DNA of 64,000 nt from a phage. Below are positions 5,979 to 38,328 of the stretch, one piece after another. Made by a program: the position numbers and the translations under genes. The first letter of the stretch is position 1. The number at the start of each line of letters is the position of its first letter. The stretch lies in sequence record PZ445521.1. One strand, given 5' to 3'. The notes under the pieces were generated by a model. That model saw only the letters and a program-made list of their open reading frames with translations, made no database searches and was not told the DNA's origin.

Positions 5979-6248
5979 TTATCTAAGTAAACAGTATGCT
6001 TGGAATACTTTTTCCATCATCTTTTTAAATTCATGAATATCTATATAATGACTAGTTAAATCAGCATGATATAAAAAGTCTAAAAACTTTTCATGTGTAC
6101 TAACATATTCACTTTCATTTAATTCAGAAACATGACTTTCCCAATATCCAACACCAGTTTTATTTGGGAAAAATGAAATTTTCATGTATTGGTCAACATA
6201 GAAAATGCCATAATTTTCAATAGTAATAGAAATATTAATAAATTTCAT
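5979..6248 (-). CDS. hypothetical protein
   Basis: 89-aa ORF. Confidence 0.45.
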   Translation of the reverse strand: MKFINISITIENYGIFYVDQYMKISFFPNKTGVGYWESHVSELNESEYVSTHEKFLDFLYHADLTSHYIDIHEFKKMMEKVFQAYCLLR

Positions 6249-18200: not shown

Positions 18201-18728
18201 TTATGCGAGTACCGTCTTTAACCGTTCTTCAAACTTCCGAAGAGTATTTTGGCGTTCAGCTCTTTGCTTTTTGTAAGTTTCAATACGCTCTGAAATGAGA
18301 GTGTATCGTTCATTTACTGATTCTTTCATAAAATCAGGAATTTCACGAGAAGCTTTAATCTCATCAAATTTATCAATAACAGCTTGCTCTTCAGCAATTA
18401 AGTTATCATACATCAAAATATCTTTCTTGATGAACTCAATATCTTCTTGAGTTACACGAGATAATTTAGATGCTTTATCCTTTTTGTACTGTTCGTTAGT
18501 ATCACGAGACCAGTGTAATGTACGATTTTTATTCGTATTCTTGTAAATTTCTACAATACCAATCTCATCAATAATAACGATCCAATTCCAACGAGATTTG
18601 TAAATTTGTCCTCCGTCAACCGTGATTTCACCTCCGATTGAGATGTCATTAAAGAACTTGCTTTGTGCTTCAGATTTAAATTTACCATCGTTGTAATTTA
18701 CCAGGTTGAAAATATCTTTAGCGTTCAT
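18201..18728 (-). CDS. hypothetical protein
   Basis: ORF 18201..18788; start moved to internal Met (MNAKDIF) because the N-terminal 20 codons read through the promoter-like element. Confidence 0.5.
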   Translation of the reverse strand: MNAKDIFNLVNYNDGKFKSEAQSKFFNDISIGGEITVDGGQIYKSRWNWIVIIDEIGIVEIYKNTNKNRTLHWSRDTNEQYKKDKASKLSRVTQEDIEFIKKDILMYDNLIAEEQAVIDKFDEIKASREIPDFMKESVNERYTLISERIETYKKQRAERQNTLRKFEERLKTVLA

Positions 18729-18749
18729 TTTGTGTTCCTCCGTAGTTGA

Positions 18750-18795
18750 TAGTTGTATAGTACCACAGAGGAACGGTCTTGTAAACAACTAAAAG
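18750..18795 (-). promoter_or_regulatory. T4-type early promoter-like element
   Basis: GATAGTTGTATAGTACCACAG block plus GTTTAC hexamer on minus strand. Confidence 0.45.
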
Positions 18796-19103
18796 AAACT
18801 TCTTTCACAATTTTTTCCACTGAACCACGCACTCACTGCTTTCTTAGTCTCAGGAGCAGTGTTATCCATAAACCATTCAAAGGCAGCCTTTTTATGATTC
18901 TGGAGGGCTTCTCGGGCTTTAATCTGCTCACGGTCTATTAACACTAACATATGAGCCTTTCTTGTCACCATGGGCTTCTTATGATTTTTTGAATACTCCC
19001 AATCATTTGTCCATCGCATCGTTGTTGCGAACTGAAATACAGCTTCTTTAATTTTAGTTTCGTAAATTTCACGAGCCTTTGAGTATAACATCACTACCTC
19101 CAT
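18789..19103 (-). CDS. hypothetical protein
   Basis: 104-aa ORF. Confidence 0.5.
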   Translation of the reverse strand: MEVVMLYSKAREIYETKIKEAVFQFATTMRWTNDWEYSKNHKKPMVTRKAHMLVLIDREQIKAREALQNHKKAAFEWFMDNTAPETKKAVSAWFSGKNCERSFF

Positions 19104-19192
19104 TTATCAGTTTAATTCTAATCATCTTTTTGATGGCAGTCCATATAATCTATTTCTGAACTGCCTTTTTGTCATAGAAGGCCTCTTATGAA

Positions 19193-20161
19193 TTATTTCA
19201 GAAGAGTAACCTCAGCAATTTCTTCCCAACCGTTTTTGTCTGTCATAATAAAGTCAGCAAGATAAAGAGCAGTACGCAGTGAAACATTACGTAAACGATT
19301 AACATTGACTTTCATCCATGATAATGCTTTATAAGTTTCTTCATCAGAAAGACCGCGCTTTTGCATCATGTCAGTTGAAAGAATAACATCTTCAACCCTG
19401 ACCATAATTTCTTCATTAGTGTGAACACCCAAATCCAAATAAACTGAGCGGGACACTAATGCTTGTAAATGTGGAGCAAGTTTAGTACCACGGTCTAATT
19501 CGCGGTCAATGTCAACGTTTGTGATAAAAACAATCGTTCCTTTAAATTCAAACTCACGCTCAATGCCTTTTTCTTCTAAGTAAGAAGATGCGGTGCTCCA
19601 GCAGACTTTACGGGTCTCTCCGGTGTCCAGAGCAGCTTTCAGAAGATTAAGAATGTCCATATCAGAGAAAACATCCACATCATCAATCAAAAGGACAGAA
19701 TTCTCTTCACGATTATTCCAAAGCTGCTCATAAAGACCAATACCAGAGATTTTACCATTAATGCTTTTATATTCAATGTATCCAATATCATTTGCTTTAT
19801 TTAAAGCTTTATCTAAAGAATACGTTTTACCAATACCCGCCGCACCAGAGATAATTAATGAACGAATATTTCCATTAATAATACCATTCGTCATCATTCC
19901 CATAACATTAAATCTTTTATTAATGCGGGTTTTCATATCTTCATACGATTCTTTAACTTCTTCAACTTTTACACCATCATATGAAATGTCTGATTTGTAA
20001 ACCCAAACACCGCGACGTTTACCGTCAATTTCAACAAAAACTTTACCATCTCCTTGTGCATCTACCGGAGCATTATCTGGGAACCATTCGCCTAAGAGCT
20101 CAAAAGTTCCAGAGATTTCTTTACCGAAGTAGATACCCTTATTGATAGTTACAGTTTTCAT
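19193..20161 (-). CDS. predicted P-loop / AAA+ ATPase
   Basis: 322 aa; Walker A GAAGIGKT and Walker B VLLIDDVD. Confidence 0.65.
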   Translation of the reverse strand: MKTVTINKGIYFGKEISGTFELLGEWFPDNAPVDAQGDGKVFVEIDGKRRGVWVYKSDISYDGVKVEEVKESYEDMKTRINKRFNVMGMMTNGIINGNIRSLIISGAAGIGKTYSLDKALNKANDIGYIEYKSINGKISGIGLYEQLWNNREENSVLLIDDVDVFSDMDILNLLKAALDTGETRKVCWSTASSYLEEKGIEREFEFKGTIVFITNVDIDRELDRGTKLAPHLQALVSRSVYLDLGVHTNEEIMVRVEDVILSTDMMQKRGLSDEETYKALSWMKVNVNRLRNVSLRTALYLADFIMTDKNGWEEIAEVTLLK

Positions 20162-20218
20162 TTTATTCTCCTTTGATTTGATAGGACTACTATAACATAG
20201 TCCTATCAGTTTGTATAC

Positions 20219-20419
20219 TTATTTTGACATTTCTTCGATGTCACGACGATACCCGTCACGAACTTCACGAAGAGCTTCAAGGCCACACATAGGCTCGATA
20301 CCAGTAATGTGAACTTGATTAATCTGATACTCTACATCTTCTAACTGAGCGAAAACATAACGACGTTCAGCTGCACAACCAGGTTTAGCTTTACCGAAAC
20401 GTTTATTCAAAGTAGTCAT
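20219..20419 (-). CDS. hypothetical small protein
   Basis: 66-aa ORF downstream of promoter-like element. Confidence 0.45.
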   Translation of the reverse strand: MTTLNKRFGKAKPGCAAERRYVFAQLEDVEYQINQVHITGIEPMCGLEALREVRDGYRRDIEEMSK

Positions 20420-20446
20420 TTTGTATCTCCAATTTACTCATTTGTT

Positions 20447-20500
20447 TTGATAGTTGTATAGTACCATAAAGCTTTATGCTTGTAAACAGTTTTGTGAAAA
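20447..20500 (-). promoter_or_regulatory. T4-type early promoter-like element
   Basis: GATAGTTGTATAGTACCATAAAG block, GTTTAC hexamer (20482..20487) and AAAACTGTTTTGTGAAAAATTTTT upstream block. Confidence 0.5.
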
Positions 20501-20517
20501 ATTTTTGAAATAAAAAA

Positions 20518-20535
20518 GGGAGCCCGAAGGCTCCC
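20518..20535 (-). terminator. intrinsic terminator hairpin
   Basis: gggagcc-cgaa-ggctccc hairpin followed on minus transcript by a U-run; directly 3' of ORF 20538..21551. Confidence 0.6.
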
Positions 20536-20537
20536 TA

Positions 20538-21551
20538 TCATTTATAATAACTTCGGTGGTTTTCAAGATAGACCTTCTCAAGGAAGTCATCCCAGAAACT
20601 CATGTCTACTGTTTTAGGCATACCGTTCTTAGAAGCTTCAGTAGATGCTGCTTCTACTTGATCGACCACATCTTCCAAAAACTCTTGAACTGTTTTAAAT
20701 GGATGTTTACCCAACTTCACGTCGAGAATAAATGGAGCATCTTGAAGTGGATAGACTAAGTCACCAGTTTTGTAAATTTCCAATAGTTGAAGTCCACCAC
20801 GACAAGCATGGCTCAGAGCTTTCCAGTCAATGCCTTCATTGGCTTCGGCCTTACGAGCGCGTTCACCATATTCAGCATCTAATTTGTTCAGTGACTGCTT
20901 AAGCTCAATAAGAGAAAGAGTTGTCTGATATTTACGACCCAACACTGTGTAAAACGTCTGTGGGCCTGTTTTCTCATGATTATGGAACACCCATTCACAG
21001 AATTCGTTTTCTGGAAGACGATGCTTAATATCTTCAACTTTAGTACGACGCTGCTTAATGGAACCGTCTTCTTGGTAATCAACCCATTGCTCAGGGATTT
21101 GATTAACTACTTTCAATACATCACGTAATGCAGCCAAACGAGAACCCTTGACACCGTATTTAGAAGCTTGCTTGCGAACATATCCTAAATAGGATTTCAT
21201 GTTAGTCGTATAAAAACGAGAACGGTTGTCTTGAATAAACTTCCACACATCAGGCAAATCAGATTTAACCACTAGTTCAGGTGGAGTATGAAGCATATCT
21301 AATGCTACAGTTTCACCATCTGCAGCTAATTTAAAGAAATATTTAAGACTGTATAGTTCATGGTCAATATCATCTTTAGTGTTTTTAGATGATGTGTTGT
21401 TGGTGTTTTTACTCATGTGCTCTTTGACATTTCCGATAAGAATATCGCGAGCAGGAGGAACAAAAATTTCTTTAAAATCTACATCAGATTCTGGGGTAGA
21501 AGTTCCATAAAGATGACTACCAAAATAGCTTTTCATTACTGTTTTCATCAT
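20538..21551 (-). CDS. predicted nucleotidyltransferase (pol-beta superfamily fold)
   Basis: 337 aa; N-terminal GSHLYG...SDVD motif (GS-x9-DxD) plus downstream acidic ETVALD. Confidence 0.55.
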   Translation of the reverse strand: MMKTVMKSYFGSHLYGTSTPESDVDFKEIFVPPARDILIGNVKEHMSKNTNNTSSKNTKDDIDHELYSLKYFFKLAADGETVALDMLHTPPELVVKSDLPDVWKFIQDNRSRFYTTNMKSYLGYVRKQASKYGVKGSRLAALRDVLKVVNQIPEQWVDYQEDGSIKQRRTKVEDIKHRLPENEFCEWVFHNHEKTGPQTFYTVLGRKYQTTLSLIELKQSLNKLDAEYGERARKAEANEGIDWKALSHACRGGLQLLEIYKTGDLVYPLQDAPFILDVKLGKHPFKTVQEFLEDVVDQVEAASTEASKNGMPKTVDMSFWDDFLEKVYLENHRSYYK

Positions 21552-22009
21552 TCAGCCTTATATTCAATAACAGGACATACTTTAGCTTTACGAGCTTTTA
21601 AAAATTCGACGATAATCGATTTCTTGGGTTGAATAGGAGGTAAACCTTTATACGCTCTATCAATATTTTCTACGTGTAAAGCATAATCCTTTTTCCATTT
21701 ATAATCTTTATATTTTTCACGCAAATGTGCAGGAATAACAAATGAACCGATAATAAGTAAAACAACCAAAAGTGCAAGTATAAATGCCGATGGAAGAAGA
21801 GTCCATAAACTACCGAAAATAAGCCAACGTTGTAGGCTTTCTGCACAAATAATTGTTAACCCTACGAGTATAGCACACCCAAAAATAGAAACGAAAAATG
21901 TAGGAATGGCAATAGACCAAAAATATGCGCATAGTGTCTTAGGTCGTTGCCATTCGTCGTTAAACAATTTGAATAATTTATAATGCCAAGAGTTTTCATT
22001 AATAATCAT
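21548..22009 (-). CDS. hypothetical membrane protein
   Basis: 153 aa; about three hydrophobic segments; start overlaps next stop. Confidence 0.55.
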   Translation of the reverse strand: MIINENSWHYKLFKLFNDEWQRPKTLCAYFWSIAIPTFFVSIFGCAILVGLTIICAESLQRWLIFGSLWTLLPSAFILALLVVLLIIGSFVIPAHLREKYKDYKWKKDYALHVENIDRAYKGLPPIQPKKSIIVEFLKARKAKVCPVIEYKAE

Positions 22010-22011
22010 AA

Positions 22012-22533
22012 TTATCCTTTCATTGAAGGAGTAATGGTTGTTAAATACTTAATCATAGCTTCAGCTTCTGATTTTGATAATGAAATTTCTCCATTGTTTT
22101 GACGAATAGAAATAAAATCCGGATGACGGTCACCACCAGCTTTTAAAACACACATATAAGTATCAACTTCACCTTCAATATTTGAAATGATTGAAGCAGT
22201 TCCGCATGAATGTGGTTTTTGATAAATCAATGCAGCTTTTCTTCCACCATTTGACTGTTCATAGGCTTTTAATACATCAAACAAATCAGTTCTTTTATCA
22301 ATAGCTAAAATGTTATTTTCATCTTCAATGTTAAATCCTTCGGATACTTCATAAAGCGTTACCCATAAATCACCGATGTCAATAACAGCATTTACTTTTC
22401 CACGGCTTTCAAGAGTATGACAAATTTTCTTGATTTCGTCATAACTCATTTTAATAATATCATCTCCTTGACTAAGGAAGATGTCATTTTTAAATTCAAC
22501 ACGAATTAAACCACTTTCACTTGAAATAAACAT
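22012..22533 (-). CDS. hypothetical protein (paralog of 22540..23085)
   Basis: 173 aa; shares GFNIE and C-terminal A..YL..I/T.P(S/T)M blocks with neighbour. Confidence 0.55.
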   Translation of the reverse strand: MFISSESGLIRVEFKNDIFLSQGDDIIKMSYDEIKKICHTLESRGKVNAVIDIGDLWVTLYEVSEGFNIEDENNILAIDKRTDLFDVLKAYEQSNGGRKAALIYQKPHSCGTASIISNIEGEVDTYMCVLKAGGDRHPDFISIRQNNGEISLSKSEAEAMIKYLTTITPSMKG

Positions 22534-22539
22534 ATTTCC

Positions 22540-23085
22540 TCACTTTGAAATCATAGTTGGAATAACAGAATCAAGATAAGTCTTTAGTGCAATAGCTTCG
22601 TCTTTGGTAAATGTGACAATATGTGCTCGAAAATCATCAATTTGACGAATAGTTAAGACATCTCCATCTTCATAACATTTTGATACGTTTAAAACAGTTT
22701 CATCATTCTGATTGCAAGCGTTAGTAATAATAGCATTGCAATTTTTAAACCATTTTAAACTATGTTTTCTTTCATTAGAATAATAAAAATATTTAATCTT
22801 ATCTATAAAACTATCCCAATGGATAACTGATAAGCATATTGACTCGCTTTCAATATTAAATCCTGGGCATGAAGAATAAAAATGAATTTTATGCTCATCA
22901 TTAATGCTTACAATTTTATCAGTATAAGGATTTTCAATTTTGGTTAAATGAATGATTTCACTAGGCGTAAAATACAGCATATCGTCTTCTTGTGTCAAAC
23001 GATACATATTATTTACTTTTTCTATAGCCAATTCACCAAAAAGTGAACTAACTTCTAATACTAATCGTTTCGCCGCTACCGTCAT
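22540..23085 (-). CDS. hypothetical protein (paralog of 22012..22533)
   Basis: 181-aa ORF. Confidence 0.55.
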   Translation of the reverse strand: MTVAAKRLVLEVSSLFGELAIEKVNNMYRLTQEDDMLYFTPSEIIHLTKIENPYTDKIVSINDEHKIHFYSSCPGFNIESESICLSVIHWDSFIDKIKYFYYSNERKHSLKWFKNCNAIITNACNQNDETVLNVSKCYEDGDVLTIRQIDDFRAHIVTFTKDEAIALKTYLDSVIPTMISK

Positions 23086-23206
23086 TACATACTCCTCTGA
23101 ATCATATCAATAATGTTGTTCACCAGATTATAAGTAAACATTGGGTAATTATATTGAATCACCACATACACAACAAACAAAACTTTCATTCTCTTCTCCT
23201 TGGCAG

Positions 23207-23250
23207 TTGACAAGATTACTATACCATAACCTTGCCAACTTGTAAACCAT
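23207..23250 (-). promoter_or_regulatory. T4-type early promoter-like element
   Basis: GACAAGATTACTATACCATAACC block plus GTTTAC hexamer. Confidence 0.35.
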
Positions 23251-23412
23251 TAAATGACGTTTTCGATAAAATTCTGAAGCTTTGTATGAGCATCAACCAT
23301 GATTTTCATTTCTTCCTTTGCGAAAGCTGTACCTCTTTCACGAGAAGAACATTCATAGTCAGAAACTGCATTAGCATATTCTTCAATTAGCTTCATTAAA
23401 AACATCTGCTTT

Positions 23413-23607
23413 TCAGTTTTCATTATTCCACCTAATCATTTCAAGATATTGAACTAACTTAGCTTTGGATTTATCCAAATCCTTTTTAGCTGCTTCTATA
23501 CCGTCGTATGAATATCCTTCACAATGCTCAACTGCTAATTGATATGAATCTATTTCAATATCACGTGCTAATTTAATGATTTTTTCAAACTGTTCGCGTG
23601 TTAGCAT
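23413..23607 (-). CDS. hypothetical small protein
   Basis: 64-aa ORF. Confidence 0.45.
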   Translation of the reverse strand: MLTREQFEKIIKLARDIEIDSYQLAVEHCEGYSYDGIEAAKKDLDKSKAKLVQYLEMIRWNNEN

Positions 23608-23609
23608 AC

Positions 23610-23813
23610 TTAAACTCTCGTATTATGATCGATAATTTCATCAAGAAACATATCTAACGCTTCTACAGCATTATTAACTTTATCTTCAAGTTCTTCAATA
23701 CTTTTATTTGCAATGCCTGACGAAAACCAAGCAAAGTCACTAAGTTCCTCATCTGCTTTACGAATTAAAGCTACCAATTCCTTAATTTTATCCGCTTGTT
23801 CGATACTAATCAT
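23610..23813 (-). CDS. hypothetical small acidic protein
   Basis: ORF 23610..23849; start at internal Met forming TAATG overlap with upstream stop. Confidence 0.45.
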   Translation of the reverse strand: MISIEQADKIKELVALIRKADEELSDFAWFSSGIANKSIEELEDKVNNAVEALDMFLDEIIDHNTRV

Positions 23814-24001
23814 TATTCCACCACATATGAAAGAGAGAATATTGCACACGCCATGTGAGTTGCAACTTCATCACACATATTATAACGTTTCTTAAGAAAT
23901 TCTACAAGTTCTTCACTAGTAACTTCATCCATGTCGACGAAAAAATCACCATTAATGATGACGTAGATATTTCCTTCTTGATTAAGTGCTTCAATTTTCA
24001 T
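23813..24001 (-). CDS. hypothetical small protein
   Basis: ORF 23813..24046; start moved to MKIEALN preceded by GGAGAA, downstream of promoter-like element. Confidence 0.45.
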
Positions 24002-24020
24002 GATGTTCTCCTCTTTATCC

Positions 24021-24065
24021 GATAGTTGTATAGTACCACAGCTCAAACGGAAAGTAAACCGGTAA
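24021..24065 (-). promoter_or_regulatory. T4-type early promoter-like element
   Basis: GATAGTTGTATAGTACCACAG block and GTTTAC hexamer (24054..24059). Confidence 0.45.
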
Positions 24066-24075
24066 AATGAAAAAA

Positions 24076-24091
24076 GTCTCCCGAAGGAGAC
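24076..24091 (-). terminator. intrinsic terminator hairpin after rI.-1
   Basis: gtctcc-cgaa-ggagac hairpin followed by a U-run on minus transcript. Confidence 0.55.
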
Positions 24092-24096
24092 TAATG

Positions 24097-24483
24097 TTAT
24101 TCGAGGGAAAGAAGATACTTACTCTGGTAAAACATTCCAGTAATATCATCTATCGTGCTTTGGATGGCTGGAGGCATTTCTTTATAAATGCTGTTAGATT
24201 GGTCTAGTATGTGATCAATCATTTTAATTGTGTCGGTAGGAAGTTTACTGGCATCTGGAATTGAAGGTGTGTATTTTCTACCAGAATACCCCAAATATTG
24301 CTCACCAAATTTATCAATCAAATCTGGCAACTCGGAGAAAATAAAATCGTATGCTTTGTGTCTAGCATAACTTTTAGTTTCAAAATGTGCAGAATGAAAA
24401 TAAGCTTGTGCAGCCATTAATAAACCTAAGTATTCATCTGCCTTTGAAGGTTTTCCACTTTGTGAAAAGTCGCTGAATTTCAT
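24097..24483 (-). CDS. hypothetical protein at rI.-1 position
   Basis: 128 aa, immediately downstream of rI. Confidence 0.5.
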
Positions 24484-24773
24484 TCAGTCTCCAATTTAAT
24501 GTTCATAATTCTAGCGTATGATTGTGCCATCTCCGCGCCTCGCTCTATACATTCAAAATCAGAAGAGCACGGGTCATTTTTATAGGTCGTTCTCATAAAA
24601 CTATAGAATTGTTCAGACGATTCTACGCTTTTATTTTCAAAAAGCATATAAACGTGCCTAATACCAGATTCCATAAATTTATCAAAATGAGGATCGACAT
24701 TCGCTTCAATCGGTGGAGATAAAACAAATGACAATCCTAGCATGGCAAATAGTGCCGTTGCTTTTAAGGCCAT
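24480..24773 (-). CDS. rI: Lysis-inhibition regulator RI (signal-anchored periplasmic antiholin partner)
   Basis: 97 aa; N-terminal hydrophobic signal anchor MALKATALFAMLGLSFVL; matches remembered T4 RI; upstream of tk. Confidence 0.8.
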   Translation of the reverse strand: MALKATALFAMLGLSFVLSPPIEANVDPHFDKFMESGIRHVYMLFENKSVESSEQFYSFMRTTYKNDPCSSDFECIERGAEMAQSYARIMNIKLETE

Positions 24774-24785
24774 AAAGGCCTCCTA

Positions 24786-24998
24786 TCATTTTTGTCCTGT
24801 ATTTACTTTATGCCGATGCACGGCCTTAACTTTATCAAGGTATTTTTCAAAATTTCGCAATCTAGTATAGTCTGCCGGAGATTGATTGAGTGATACTTCT
24901 CGACGCAAAGCTGAAATGATATTTCCAACTTCCCTACGAATTTCATCTAATTGAAGCACAGTAAGATTGCGAAGTTGCTTTTCAGTTAATTGTAGCAT
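24786..24998 (-). CDS. hypothetical small protein
   Basis: 70-aa ORF between tk and rI. Confidence 0.5.
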
Positions 24999-25040
24999 AT
25001 ATACCCCTTTAGTTAGATAAACCTATTTATAACTTTTGCA

Positions 25041-25622
25041 CTAACCGAGCTTTTTAGTTAATTCATTCCAATGTTTTCTACACAAAGAAACATAAATTTC
25101 ATCACCAATACAGATTTGATTACCTTCTTTAACTGGTGATCCATCTTCCATTAATCGAGCTGTCATAATCGCTTTTTTACCACAATGACAAACTGCCTTT
25201 AGTTCAATAAGTTTATCTGCAATCGCTAAAAGTTCTTTAGAACCTTCAAATAATTTTCCAGCGAAATCAGTCCTTAGCCCATAAGCCATAACAGGAACAT
25301 TATATGTATCAACAATTCGGCTCAATTGATGCACCTGTTCAGTTTTTAAAAACTGAGCTTCATCTACAAATACGCAATGAATATCTTTTTGTGCTTCAGC
25401 CCATTTATAGAACTCGAAAATATCCATATCATCTGTAATAATATTCGCTTCCTGTTTAATTCCAATGCGAGAAACAACTTCACAGACAGAATCGCGAGTA
25501 TCAATAGCAGGCTTAAGAACTAATACACTCATTCCACGTTCTTTATAATTATGTGCAGCAGTCAAAAGAGAAGCAGATTTTCCAGCATTCATTGCTGCAT
25601 AAGTAAAAATTAAACTCGCCAT
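25041..25622 (-). CDS. tk: Thymidine kinase
   Basis: 193 aa; P-loop AAMNAGKS and C-terminal Cys motifs typical of type II thymidine kinase. Confidence 0.9.
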   Translation of the reverse strand: MASLIFTYAAMNAGKSASLLTAAHNYKERGMSVLVLKPAIDTRDSVCEVVSRIGIKQEANIITDDMDIFEFYKWAEAQKDIHCVFVDEAQFLKTEQVHQLSRIVDTYNVPVMAYGLRTDFAGKLFEGSKELLAIADKLIELKAVCHCGKKAIMTARLMEDGSPVKEGNQICIGDEIYVSLCRKHWNELTKKLG

Positions 25623-25623
25623 C

Positions 25624-25812
25624 TTAGTCCTTAGTTAAATTTTCTAAATATGTTTCTAAATCATTTTCAACTTTATCGATAGATTTTACTAATTCGTAAT
25701 ATGTTTCGGCATCTCCATATTCAGAAGATATTTCAAAAGACAAATCCTTTTCTAAACTAATAATTTCACCAACTAAAAATAATATTTCGTTCTTTTGTTC
25801 GCGAGTAATCAT
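25624..25812 (-). CDS. hypothetical small acidic protein
   Basis: 62-aa ORF. Confidence 0.45.
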   Translation of the reverse strand: MITREQKNEILFLVGEIISLEKDLSFEISSEYGDAETYYELVKSIDKVENDLETYLENLTKD

Positions 25813-37306: not shown

Positions 37307-37382
37307 TGGTCGAGGCAGTAGGGATCGAACCTACGACCTAGGACTTAGAAGGTCCTTGCTCTTCCTTCTGAGCTATGCCCCG
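37307..37382 (-). tRNA. tRNA-Arg (anticodon UCU)
   Basis: Hand-folded cloverleaf: acceptor cggggca/tgcctcg, D-arm TAGCTCAG, anticodon loop cu-UCU-aa, T-arm GGTTCGATCC, encoded CCA. Confidence 0.8.
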
Positions 37383-37386
37383 TAAT

Positions 37387-37462
37387 TGGGGTGACCGATG
37401 GGAGTCGAACCCATGACTACGAGAATCACAATCTCGAGTTCTACCAACTGAACTACGGCCAC
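37387..37462 (-). tRNA. tRNA-His (anticodon GUG)
   Basis: Cloverleaf: anticodon stem cgaga/tctcg, loop uu-GUG-au, T-arm atggg-TTCGACT-cccat, discriminator C, encoded CCA; no encoded G-1. Confidence 0.65.
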
Positions 37463-37576
37463 ATTAATACCTACTCCAACAATCAAGATGTCTTCACACG
37501 AAATTAAGAGAAGAGTGATCAGTTCAACCCCTATAATCGCGTCAAGTAGATATTAATGTGACAGTTGTCACAAATT

Positions 37577-37651
37577 TGGCGGACGTGATAGGATTCGAAC
37601 CTATAACCAATCGCTTAACAGGCGATCGCTCTACCATTGAGCTACACATCC
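37577..37651 (-). tRNA. tRNA-Asn (anticodon GUU)
   Basis: Cloverleaf: anticodon stem atcgc/gcgat, loop cu-GUU-aa, T-arm atagg-TTCGAAT-cctat, encoded CCA. Confidence 0.65.
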
Positions 37652-37655
37652 AAAT

Positions 37656-37742
37656 TGGTGGGGAGTGGTGGAGTCGAACCACCCGAGTCGCAATGACAAT
37701 GAATTTACAGTCCACACCGCTACCTCTACGGGATAACTCCCC
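37656..37742 (-). tRNA. tRNA-Tyr (anticodon GUA), long variable arm
   Basis: 87 nt; anticodon loop cu-GUA-aa, T-arm ggtgg-TTCGACT-ccacc, acceptor ggggagt/actcccc, encoded CCA. Confidence 0.6.
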
Positions 37743-37754
37743 TAATTCATAATT

Positions 37755-37829
37755 TGGTGGCCCTGGGTGGAATTGAACCACCATCTGGCGATTATGAGTC
37801 GCTTGCTTGAACCTTCCAGCTACAGGGCC
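37755..37829 (-). tRNA. tRNA with CAU anticodon (Ile2 or Met)
   Basis: anticodon loop cu-CAU-aa, T-arm ggtgg-TTCAATT-ccacc, acceptor ggccctg/cagggcc, encoded CCA; Ile/Met identity undetermined. Confidence 0.65.
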
Positions 37830-37830
37830 T

Positions 37831-37906
37831 TGGTGCTGATTGACGGAATCGAACCGCCGACGTCCTCATTACAAGTGAGTTGCTCTACCTACTGAGCTAA
37901 ATCAGC
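37831..37906 (-). tRNA. tRNA-Thr (anticodon UGU)
   Basis: anticodon loop cu-UGU-aa, D-arm TAGCTCAGTAGGTAGAGC, T-loop TTCGATT, encoded CCA. Confidence 0.75.
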
Positions 37907-37912
37907 AAAAAC

Positions 37913-38002
37913 TGGCGGAGGCGATAGGATTTGAACCTATGAGTCGCCGGAGCGACTGCCGGTTTTCAAGACCGGTGCATTAAACCACTCTGCCACGCCT
38001 CC
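37913..38002 (-). tRNA. tRNA-Ser (anticodon UGA), long variable arm
   Basis: 90 nt; anticodon stem ccggt/accgg, loop cu-UGA-aa, long variable arm, T-arm atagg-TTCAAAT-cctat. Confidence 0.75.
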
Positions 38003-38004
38003 AG

Positions 38005-38078
38005 TCTCCATACAAGGATTTGAACCTTGGACCTCCTGATCCCAAATCAGGCGCTCTACCAAACTGAGCTACACGGAG
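38005..38078 (-). tRNA. tRNA-Pro (anticodon UGG), CCA not encoded
   Basis: anticodon stem cctga/tcagg, loop uu-UGG-ga, T-arm caagg-TTCAAAT-ccttg; 3' terminus lacks CCA. Confidence 0.75.
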
Positions 38079-38088
38079 TAAATTAAAT

Positions 38089-38162
<74 letters not shown>

Positions 38163-38167
38163 AAATT

Positions 38168-38254
38168 TGGTGCGAGAAGTGGGACTCGAACCCACAAGGA
38201 AATCATTCCGCAGCATTTTAAGTGCTGTGCCTTTACCAATTTGACCATTCTCGC
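38168..38254 (-). tRNA. tRNA-Leu (anticodon UAA), long variable arm
   Basis: 87 nt; anticodon stem cagca/tgctg, loop cu-UAA-aa, T-arm gtggg-TTCGAGT-cccac, encoded CCA. Confidence 0.75.
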
Positions 38255-38255
38255 G

Positions 38256-38328
38256 CTGGGAATAAAGGACTCGAACCTTTGCATCCTGGAATCAAAATCC
38301 AGTGCCTTACCAACTTGGCTAATTCCCA
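38256..38328 (-). tRNA. tRNA-Gln (anticodon UUG), CCA not encoded
   Basis: acceptor tgggaat/attccca, anticodon stem ctgga/tccag, loop uu-UUG-au, T-loop TTCGAGT; 3' end abuts tRNA-Leu. Confidence 0.75.

Follow-up and report, generated by a model that had tools for sequence, protein, structure and literature searches.

An early T4-type phage operon with NrdC.11, an RlaP-family nucleotidyltransferase plausibly involved in tRNA repair

What does a nucleotidyltransferase do in a T4-like phage, and is the membrane protein encoded next to it its partner? The question is raised by a block of genes in the phage record PZ445521.1, a stretch of 64,000 nucleotides (nt) hereafter called the window, to which all coordinates refer; every feature of the operon described here lies on the minus strand. 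An initial annotation of this DNA had pointed out a protein of 337 amino acids (aa) with Pol-beta-type motifs, a 153-aa membrane protein and two paralogous proteins of 173 and 181 aa, and had proposed a nucleotide-signal or a nucleic-acid-modifying function for them. All four open reading frames (ORFs) are present as claimed, and a fifth gene, the first of the unit, had been overlooked. The annotated T4T record supplies the names: NrdC.11 for the 337-aa protein, MobD.1 for the 181-aa protein and MobD.2 for the 34-aa product of the fifth gene. The locus is the catalogued mobD.2-mobD.1-nrdC.11 early region of a sequenced T4-type phage and as such is already known, although the initial annotation did not recognize the long-annotated T4 nrdC.11/mobD.1 region in it. 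In a nucleotide search, positions 20400-23300 were 100% identical to the Shigella phage JK38 sequence and reached 97-99% identity with many Tequatroviruses, and the phage of the window is a Tequatrovirus of the T2/T6/JK38 type. Our best joint explanation, to which we assign a probability of roughly 0.6, is an early mobD.2-nrdC.11 unit with an RlaP-family enzyme acting in tRNA repair, a pair of PUR-like paralogues and a membrane gene that is not an obligate companion of the enzyme.

NrdC.11 (20538-21551, minus strand) is a Pol-beta nucleotidyltransferase of the RlaP family (PF10127), and this membership is secure. The protein scores 43.9 bits against PF10127, for which the gathering score is 23 (E=3.1e-11); in a family alignment of 77 diverse NrdC.11 relatives (35-99% identity) all 77 match the same profile, with a best E=2.2e-19, and just six of them touch NTP_transf_2, weakly. 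PF10127 is also the precomputed assignment of every listed NrdC.11 homologue. The Pol-beta motifs that had first drawn attention are indeed there, namely GSHLYG (G11, S12), SDVD (D23, D25) and ALD (D85). Across the alignment G11, S12, D23 and D25 never vary, D85 is kept in at least 90% of the sequences, and the C-terminal half has invariant residues of its own (R231, K244, H248 and R251). NrdC.11 further matches PHROG 388, labelled ‘nucleotidyltransferase’, with E=6.7e-138, and an exhaustive search of representative sequences returned 3508 homologous clusters at E<=0.001, of which 832 reached E<=1e-30; most alignments span the whole protein.

The AlphaFold2 (AF2) model of NrdC.11 has a predicted local distance difference test score (pLDDT) of 92.6 and a predicted template modelling score (pTM) of 0.77, and it shows a minimal Pol-beta fold combined with a helical domain. 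Four parts can be distinguished: a nucleotidyltransferase core (residues 1-115), a helical linker (119-151), a beta-rich insertion (about 155-209) and a C-terminal helical domain (214-336). The initial annotation had called for a check of the nucleotidyltransferase fold; the confident model and the catalytic set of residues answer it positively, with RlaP as the family, and NrdC.11 belongs to none of the families that had been suggested as candidates. The fold-match lists contain neither cGAS/CD-NTase enzymes (CBASS) nor CCA-adding enzymes, the latter also being without a Pfam match, and Cid1/PAP reached a Foldseek probability of 0.08 and a TM-score of 0.11, again without a Pfam match. As for MNT/AbiEii, NTP_transf_2 scored 13.6 bits against a cut-off of 21, no HEPN or AbiEi partner gene was found, and the MNT chain 7ae9_G is a weak fold match.

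That last match nevertheless has to be weighed, as NrdC.11 might be an MNT-like protein-AMPylating enzyme that neutralizes a HEPN-type RNase toxin of the host. The core of the protein does resemble MNT antitoxins (7ae9_G, Foldseek probability 0.72), and a counter-defence role would fit an early phage gene. However, the NTP_transf_2 score stays below its cut-off, neither Pfam nor PADLOC gives a match to an AbiEii/MNT family, and the characterized RlaP enzymes left E. coli proteins unlabelled (PMC12776372), so that we regard this explanation as improbable. Fold matches also include KNTase/ANT(4'), LinB and AAD(9), which share the architecture of a nucleotidyltransferase domain followed by a helical domain, and NrdC.11 could on these grounds be taken for an ANT/Lnu-type (KNTase, LinB) small-molecule nucleotidyltransferase with an antibiotic-like compound or a metabolite as substrate. 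With no Pfam match to the ANT/Lnu families, no obvious rationale for such an enzyme in a lytic phage and the placement of NrdC.11 in RlaP, this seems to us the least probable reading of all. PADLOC and NCBIfam scans of all operon proteins gave zero matches. When NrdC.11 was compared with all PDB chains, as a single sequence and afterwards as the 77-sequence profile, nothing meaningful came back and no solved RlaP chain was matched.

RlaP enzymes have been characterized from Pseudomonas in a preprint of December 2025 (Carruthers, Fatma & Huang, bioRxiv), in which T4 NrdC.11 was named as a member of PF10127, in cluster 5 of the similarity network (PMC12776372). The enzymes of P. fluorescens and P. 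aeruginosa (PfRlaP and PaRlaP) add one or two nucleoside monophosphates (NMP) or deoxynucleoside monophosphates (dNMP) to an RNA 3'-OH, with dATP being usable; they prefer mimics of cleaved or damaged tRNA as well as Mn2+, are inactive on DNA and protein, and partially rescue aminoacylation of a tRNA that is short of a nucleotide (PMC12776372). Among jumbo phages, the occurrence of RlaP follows that of RNA ligases, and the protein was predicted to restore nucleotides removed by RloC-type nucleases (PMC7824862). COG3541 ‘nucleotidyltransferase’ had been assigned to nrdC.11 already in 2006 (PMC1524935), and the T4 region from nrdC.11 to mobD.3 is deletable (PMC9825161).

The window protein has 98% full-length identity to T4 NrdC.11 (38.9 kDa; COG3541/PF10127), a Y05-series ORF of the nrdC-mobD region, which sits in the same place upstream of nrdC.10 and shares both its terminator and the promoter that follows; compared with T4, the start of the window copy is possible one codon earlier (MMKT...). 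What differs is the gene directly upstream, which is the HNH homing endonuclease gene mobD in T4 and, in the window, the 153-aa membrane gene behind a second y05I-family paralogue. With PfRlaP and PaRlaP, NrdC.11 has in common the Pfam family, the GS and three catalytic carboxylates and, as far as its predicted model goes, a nucleotidyltransferase domain at the N terminus with a helical domain behind it; in crystallized PfRlaP two such domains enclose a cleft. Unlike the Pseudomonas proteins, it has the extra beta-rich insertion at about 155-209 and shares no operon with RtcB or another RNA ligase. The name of NrdC.11 has been a source of confusion of its own: many GenBank and UniRef records call the protein ‘thioredoxin’ after ‘nrdC’.

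By analogy with these enzymes, it is a reasonable inference that NrdC.11 adds nucleotides to RNA 3' ends, and a role in tRNA repair is plausible. RNA-end repair is the best-supported function of NrdC.11, and of the two functions that the initial annotation had offered, the nucleic-acid-modifying one is the best reading, specifically as nucleotide addition at the 3' end of RNA. In such a scheme, a host RloC-type anticodon nuclease would remove a nucleotide from a tRNA, NrdC.11 would put the missing nucleotide or nucleotides back on the RNA 3' end, and the phage's Pnk and RNA ligase 1 would then restore the nucleotide-depleted tRNA. The repair partners would be supplied by the phage, since Pnk and RNA ligase 1 are encoded in both JK38 and T4T, about 80 kb from nrdC.11.

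Several points weigh against this reading. The Pfam RlaP profile aligns with NrdC.11 over its N-terminal half only (positions 23-142 of 249), and the beta insertion at about 155-209 lies outside that alignment, so that the substrate specificity may be unlike that of the Pseudomonas enzymes. Neither the window nor the compared loci L001-L034 have an RNA ligase gene within 6 kb, and with Pnk and RNA ligase 1 some 80 kb distant, the association of RlaP with RNA ligase holds at the genome level only. Among the neighbours of distant NrdC.11 homologues there are a DNA ligase, an NMNAT-Nudix protein and a TET-associated glycosyltransferase, and no RNA ligase; an RNA ligase in the same operon, from which RlaP takes its name, was seen at no phage locus examined. 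Moreover, the repair model for RlaP is itself an in vitro proposal from a preprint, and NMP addition to an RNA 3'-OH was shown for the Pseudomonas enzymes only (PMC12776372).

The second part of the question concerns the 153-aa protein (21548-22009, minus strand), which matches PHROG 944 ‘membrane protein’ with E=3.8e-50. Its membrane character stands as described before: residues 25-60 and 62-98, approximately, form two long hydrophobic stretches, which amount to two to four helices and are followed by a basic C-terminal tail. The family is narrow: just 23 clusters came up at E<=0.001, and wherever a source is named it is an Escherichia phage or E. coli record; homologues of the membrane protein occur in 852 phage records and those of MobD.1 in 727, as compared with 1518 for NrdC.11, which extends over phages of Escherichia, Aeromonas, Acinetobacter and Vibrio. 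Judging from these distributions, the membrane gene appears to be confined to enterobacterial T4-like phages.

To follow the neighbourhood we used a synteny set of 34 loci, 31 of them retrieved via NrdC.11 and three being reference or genome loci. The membrane gene is absent in eight of the 34 (T4T, L006, L003, L032, L034 and the Aeromonas loci L027, L028 and L030). Where it is present, it lies directly against nrdC.11 in 14 of 26 loci and is separated from it by one to several genes in the other 12, and it is found in shortened copies in T2 and other phages. Its constant neighbour is another gene altogether: in 23 of the 26 loci a y05I-type gene, of the family of MobD.1, stands immediately upstream of it, either at full length or as a 65-87-aa form with the C-terminal domain alone, and the two genes lost together in T4 are exactly a y05I paralogue and the membrane gene. 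At the level of gene order, the membrane gene thus forms a conserved pair with the preceding y05I-type gene and is not an obligate partner of the nucleotidyltransferase. The synteny comparison that the initial annotation had recommended in this way speaks against its own suggestion of a membrane partner for the enzyme in a nucleotide-signal system. The membrane protein is a dispensable accessory rather than the signalling partner of NrdC.11, and an obligate pairing is argued against because a conserved nucleotidyltransferase is preceded by changeable small accessory genes. It should be added that the ATGA overlap between the two genes allows translational coupling and that they are adjacent in those 14 loci, so that some functional link of the membrane gene to nrdC.11, which would weigh against the explanation we prefer, is conceivable.

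An operon of a nucleotidyltransferase and a membrane channel is precisely what defines the Hailong system (PMC13434031), where HalB makes oligodeoxyadenylate and HalA is a DNA-gated channel. The two phage proteins could accordingly be a Hailong- or CBASS-type signalling pair, or NrdC.11 could mimic HalB and thereby keep a Hailong channel of the host closed. HalB came up as a structural match to the NrdC.11 model, and the overlap of the membrane gene with the nrdC.11 start would suit such a pair. However, the structural likeness seems confined to the generic core, HalB being a protein of 217 aa with 14% identity to NrdC.11 and without its extra domains, and the 77-sequence profile found no PDB chain at E<=1, HalB included, beyond chance. 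There is no PADLOC match, the characterized members of RlaP extend RNA primers and do not produce free signals, and NrdC.11 is kept without the membrane gene in T4, L006, Aeromonas phages and others, in addition to the shortened versions of the gene mentioned above. Whereas Hailong is a bacterial defence operon and an obligate two-gene pair, nrdC.11 belongs to a phage operon in which the pairing is not conserved; and in place of the HalA channel there is a 153-aa membrane protein without detectable relation to any defence family in PADLOC. We therefore consider a Hailong-type pair or mimic very unlikely.

A neighbouring idea, which we rate just as low, is that NrdC.11, besides repairing RNA ends, would be a HalB-like oligonucleotide synthase, serving either in a nucleic-acid-gated membrane module together with the PUR-like and membrane proteins or as a decoy by which Hailong-type channels of the host stay closed while phage exonucleases destroy the oligo-dA signal of the host. 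We leave it on the list because HalB is the best structural neighbour, RlaP enzymes can use dATP, and the ATGA junction would couple the two genes. The nucleotide-signal reading as a whole is unsupported, because the constant neighbour of the membrane gene is a MobD.1-type gene, T4 lacks the membrane gene, and NrdC.11 belongs to RlaP.

Two further observations came from the same loci. A different family of 167-184 aa, with a C-terminal motif VPVEVGD.F and no Pfam match, abuts or overlaps the nrdC.11 start in the distant enterobacterial-type loci L017, L020, L021 and L023 and in the Aeromonas loci L027 and L030 (ORF ends at about 5990-6004), which makes it a neighbour of the nucleotidyltransferase with a wider distribution than the membrane protein. 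A scan of genome contigs yielded a single locus, L003, and was uninformative on bacterial contexts; this 43-kb contig (JBOFGC010000083.1), assigned to a ‘Bacilli bacterium’ metagenome-assembled genome, has NrdC.11 at 54% identity together with an rI.-1-like gene and genes for an NMNAT-Nudix protein and a TET-associated glycosyltransferase, and is most likely a misbinned contig of a T4-like phage.

The genes for MobD.1 (22540-23085, minus strand) and its 173-aa paralogue (22012-22533, minus strand) precede the membrane gene. The paralogy proposed for them is confirmed by 29% identity (BLASTP E=1e-10), and both proteins exceed the Pfam thresholds of T4_y05I_N and T4_y05I_C. This family, too, is small, with only 35 clusters at E<=0.001, nearly all with T4-like phage or enterobacterial source names, and among the loci compared two y05I copies occur only in phages of the T2/T6/JK38 type. 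The AF2 model of MobD.1 consists of three beta-beta-beta-beta-alpha units of PUR/Whirly-like form; pLDDT is above 90 in the N-terminal domain and about 60 in the C-terminal one, and one model of five is confident. At the level of the model, MobD.1 and its paralogue have a PUR/Whirly-like fold, with the sequence identity of the family to the folds of Pur-alpha, Whirly, MRP1-MRP2 and PC4 being just 5-10%, and such a fold would imply binding of single-stranded nucleic acid. Pfam carries the label ‘putative transcription factor’ for the family, which is annotation only; we did not adopt this role, as the fold points to the PUR/Whirly single-strand binders. A literature search on ‘y05I’ returned nothing relevant.

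The short y05I relatives are worth describing on their own. Stand-alone y05I_C ORFs of 65-87 aa, predicted as a single PUR-like repeat with a conserved motif like ..TKDEA.ALK.YL.., are always found directly before the membrane gene, in L015, L017-L022 and L029, which suggests that y05I_C and the membrane gene form a conserved pair. P0291 is a natural chimera in which the first two-thirds of MobD.1 continue into the C-terminal portion of the 173-aa protein, and it looks like the product of recombination or deletion between tandem paralogues. In RefSeq, MobD.1 is mislabelled as ‘molybdopterin-guanine dinucleotide biosynthesis protein MobD’.

If the paralogues do bind single-stranded nucleic acid, all five genes might build one RNA-handling machine in which the PUR/Whirly-like proteins present broken RNA ends to NrdC.11, possibly at the membrane. 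MRP1 and MRP2, which anneal RNAs, would be the model for such a role. The tight junctions within a single promoter-to-terminator unit speak for this possibility, as does the order y05I-membrane-(variable)-nrdC.11, which is kept across enterobacterial T4-like genera, although gene order in T4-like phages is conserved in general and the argument is accordingly weak. On the other hand, many phages with NrdC.11 have no detectable y05I or membrane gene, two of the five genes are missing in T4, the evolutionary rates are far apart (nonsynonymous to synonymous rate ratio, dN/dS, of 0.05 for NrdC.11 as against 0.18-0.35 for MobD.1), and the MobD.1 fold comes from the one confident model with its low-scoring C-terminal domain. 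We consider a five-gene machine unlikely, if somewhat less so than the other alternatives, and retain tRNA repair by NrdC.11, with the paralogues and the membrane protein as separate members of the unit.

The transcription signals that the initial annotation had placed around the block are both present and both conserved in T4. The early promoter (23218-23247, minus strand) reads GTTTACA-17 nt-TGgTATAGT, the form of a T4 early promoter; its hexamers and extended -10 TG (TTTACA-17-TATAGT, 23246..23218) score 10/12, the top sigma-70 match within 18500-25700, and the GTTTAC form is common to four other early-like minus-strand sites of the window. In T4 both hexamers are identical and two substitutions fall in the spacer. 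At the other end an intrinsic terminator (20517-20536, minus strand) starts one base past the NrdC.11 stop, with an 8-bp GC-rich stem and a UUCG loop (AGGGAGCC-UUCG-GGCUCCCU) followed by a U-run. It folds with -17.7 kcal/mol (z=-4.0; none of 200 shuffles as stable), is identical in T4 and is annotated as a terminator in phage KAW1E185. A second early-type promoter just downstream (20458-20487, minus strand; GTTTACA-17 nt-TGgTACTAT), also conserved in T4, opens the next unit with a 66-aa ORF and nrdC.10 and marks the lower boundary.

Within these limits the genes are closely packed. The 34-aa hydrophobic peptide encoded by mobD.2 (23085-23189, minus strand) is 91% identical to T4 MobD.2 and matches PHROG 3515 with E=3e-22; its gene has a GGAG ribosome-binding site, and its stop overlaps the MobD.1 start (TAATG). 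The overlapping stops and starts reported for the other four genes hold for the 153/337 junction (ATGA) and not for the remaining two, where a gap of 2 nt separates the 173- and 153-aa genes and one of 6 nt the 181- and 173-aa genes, the latter with a GAGG ribosome-binding site on top of the stop codon. The dN/dS values are lowest for NrdC.11 (0.04-0.05), the product of the last gene and by far the most conserved, followed by the membrane protein (0.06-0.14), the 173-aa protein (0.12-0.17) and MobD.1 (0.18-0.35), and this range of 0.04-0.35 indicates purifying selection and thus that the four ORFs are real genes. With an early-promoter consensus upstream, an intrinsic terminator downstream and no strong internal terminator, the five genes are probably co-expressed from one early promoter in the first minutes of infection. 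A search for late promoters (TATAAATA) inside the block found none, and a search for MotA boxes found three loose MotA-like ones. One of these (ATGCTTTA / TTATGCTTTACA; about 21679-21690, near 21686, minus strand) falls within the membrane gene, in its 3' part, and precedes the nrdC.11 start by about 130 nt, with an unconvincing -10 spacing; as a sequence match it could be an additional middle promoter from which nrdC.11 is expressed independently of the upstream genes.

The same stretch shows what the mobD site looks like without its endonuclease gene. T4 lacks the 173-aa and 153-aa genes and has in their place the free-standing homing endonuclease gene mobD, which occupies the slot between mobD.1 and nrdC.11 and is absent from the window. 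A base-by-base alignment with T4 revealed near-identical flanks: the ribosome-binding site and approximately the first 21 nt of the 173-aa gene are kept in T4 (ATGTTTATTTCAAGTG...), beyond which the mobD cassette follows, and homology returns at the nrdC.11 start codon. The replacement junctions in this alignment are at 22512-22533 and 21548-21560 of the window (L002, 4160-5020). Because the T4 flanks match with the mobD cassette between them, the window shows the uninterrupted, ancestral allele, free of the homing endonuclease gene (HEG), and the insertion in T4 was accompanied by loss of two genes. At L010 (4782-6004) the membrane gene and nrdC.11 flank a mobD homologue with 80% identity, and nothing is deleted. 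Both contexts have just one flank in common, the 5' end of nrdC.11, and this hints at the MobD cut site; the target of MobD was listed as unknown in a review (PMC2988022).

Beyond the unit, the next annotated T4 gene downstream is nrdC.10 (19193-20161, minus strand), which encodes a 322-aa P-loop ATPase with AAA and STAND-type Pfam matches below threshold and, with a dN/dS of 0.03 against T4, very strong conservation. The 66-aa ORF between nrdC.11 and nrdC.10 (20219-20419, minus strand; PHROG 6200, E=3e-36) occurs in KAW1E185 and L004 but not in T4, where the intergenic gap is only about 115 nt, nor in several other close relatives. Farther away, 11 tRNA genes (Arg, His, Asn, Tyr, Met-CAT, Thr, Ser, Pro, Gly, Leu and Gln) lie at 37307-38328 on the minus strand, coinciding with the GC-rich 36-38 kb bin (0.426); T4 has eight tRNA genes, fewer than the 11 of the window. 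Near 44 kb the sign of the GC skew flips, as would fit a change from early transcription units on the minus strand to late ones on the plus strand.

Taken together, the signalling reading can be dropped, as the membrane protein is not the partner of the nucleotidyltransferase, and the window does not contain a new kind of system: the repair idea is already in the literature for RlaP, and T4 NrdC.11 has already been named as a member. The additions made here are modest, namely an intact HEG-free allele of the T4 mobD site and a predicted PUR/Whirly-like fold for the MobD.1 family. RNA repair was discovered in T4 with Pnk and Rnl1, which act against the PrrC nuclease, and RloC-type nucleases, which also excise the wobble nucleotide, had been taken to defeat repair by these two enzymes. 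If the reading given here is true, RlaP in T4-like phages would be the missing step, in which the nucleotide is replaced before ligation, and the question of RloC versus T4 repair would be directly testable with nrdC.11.

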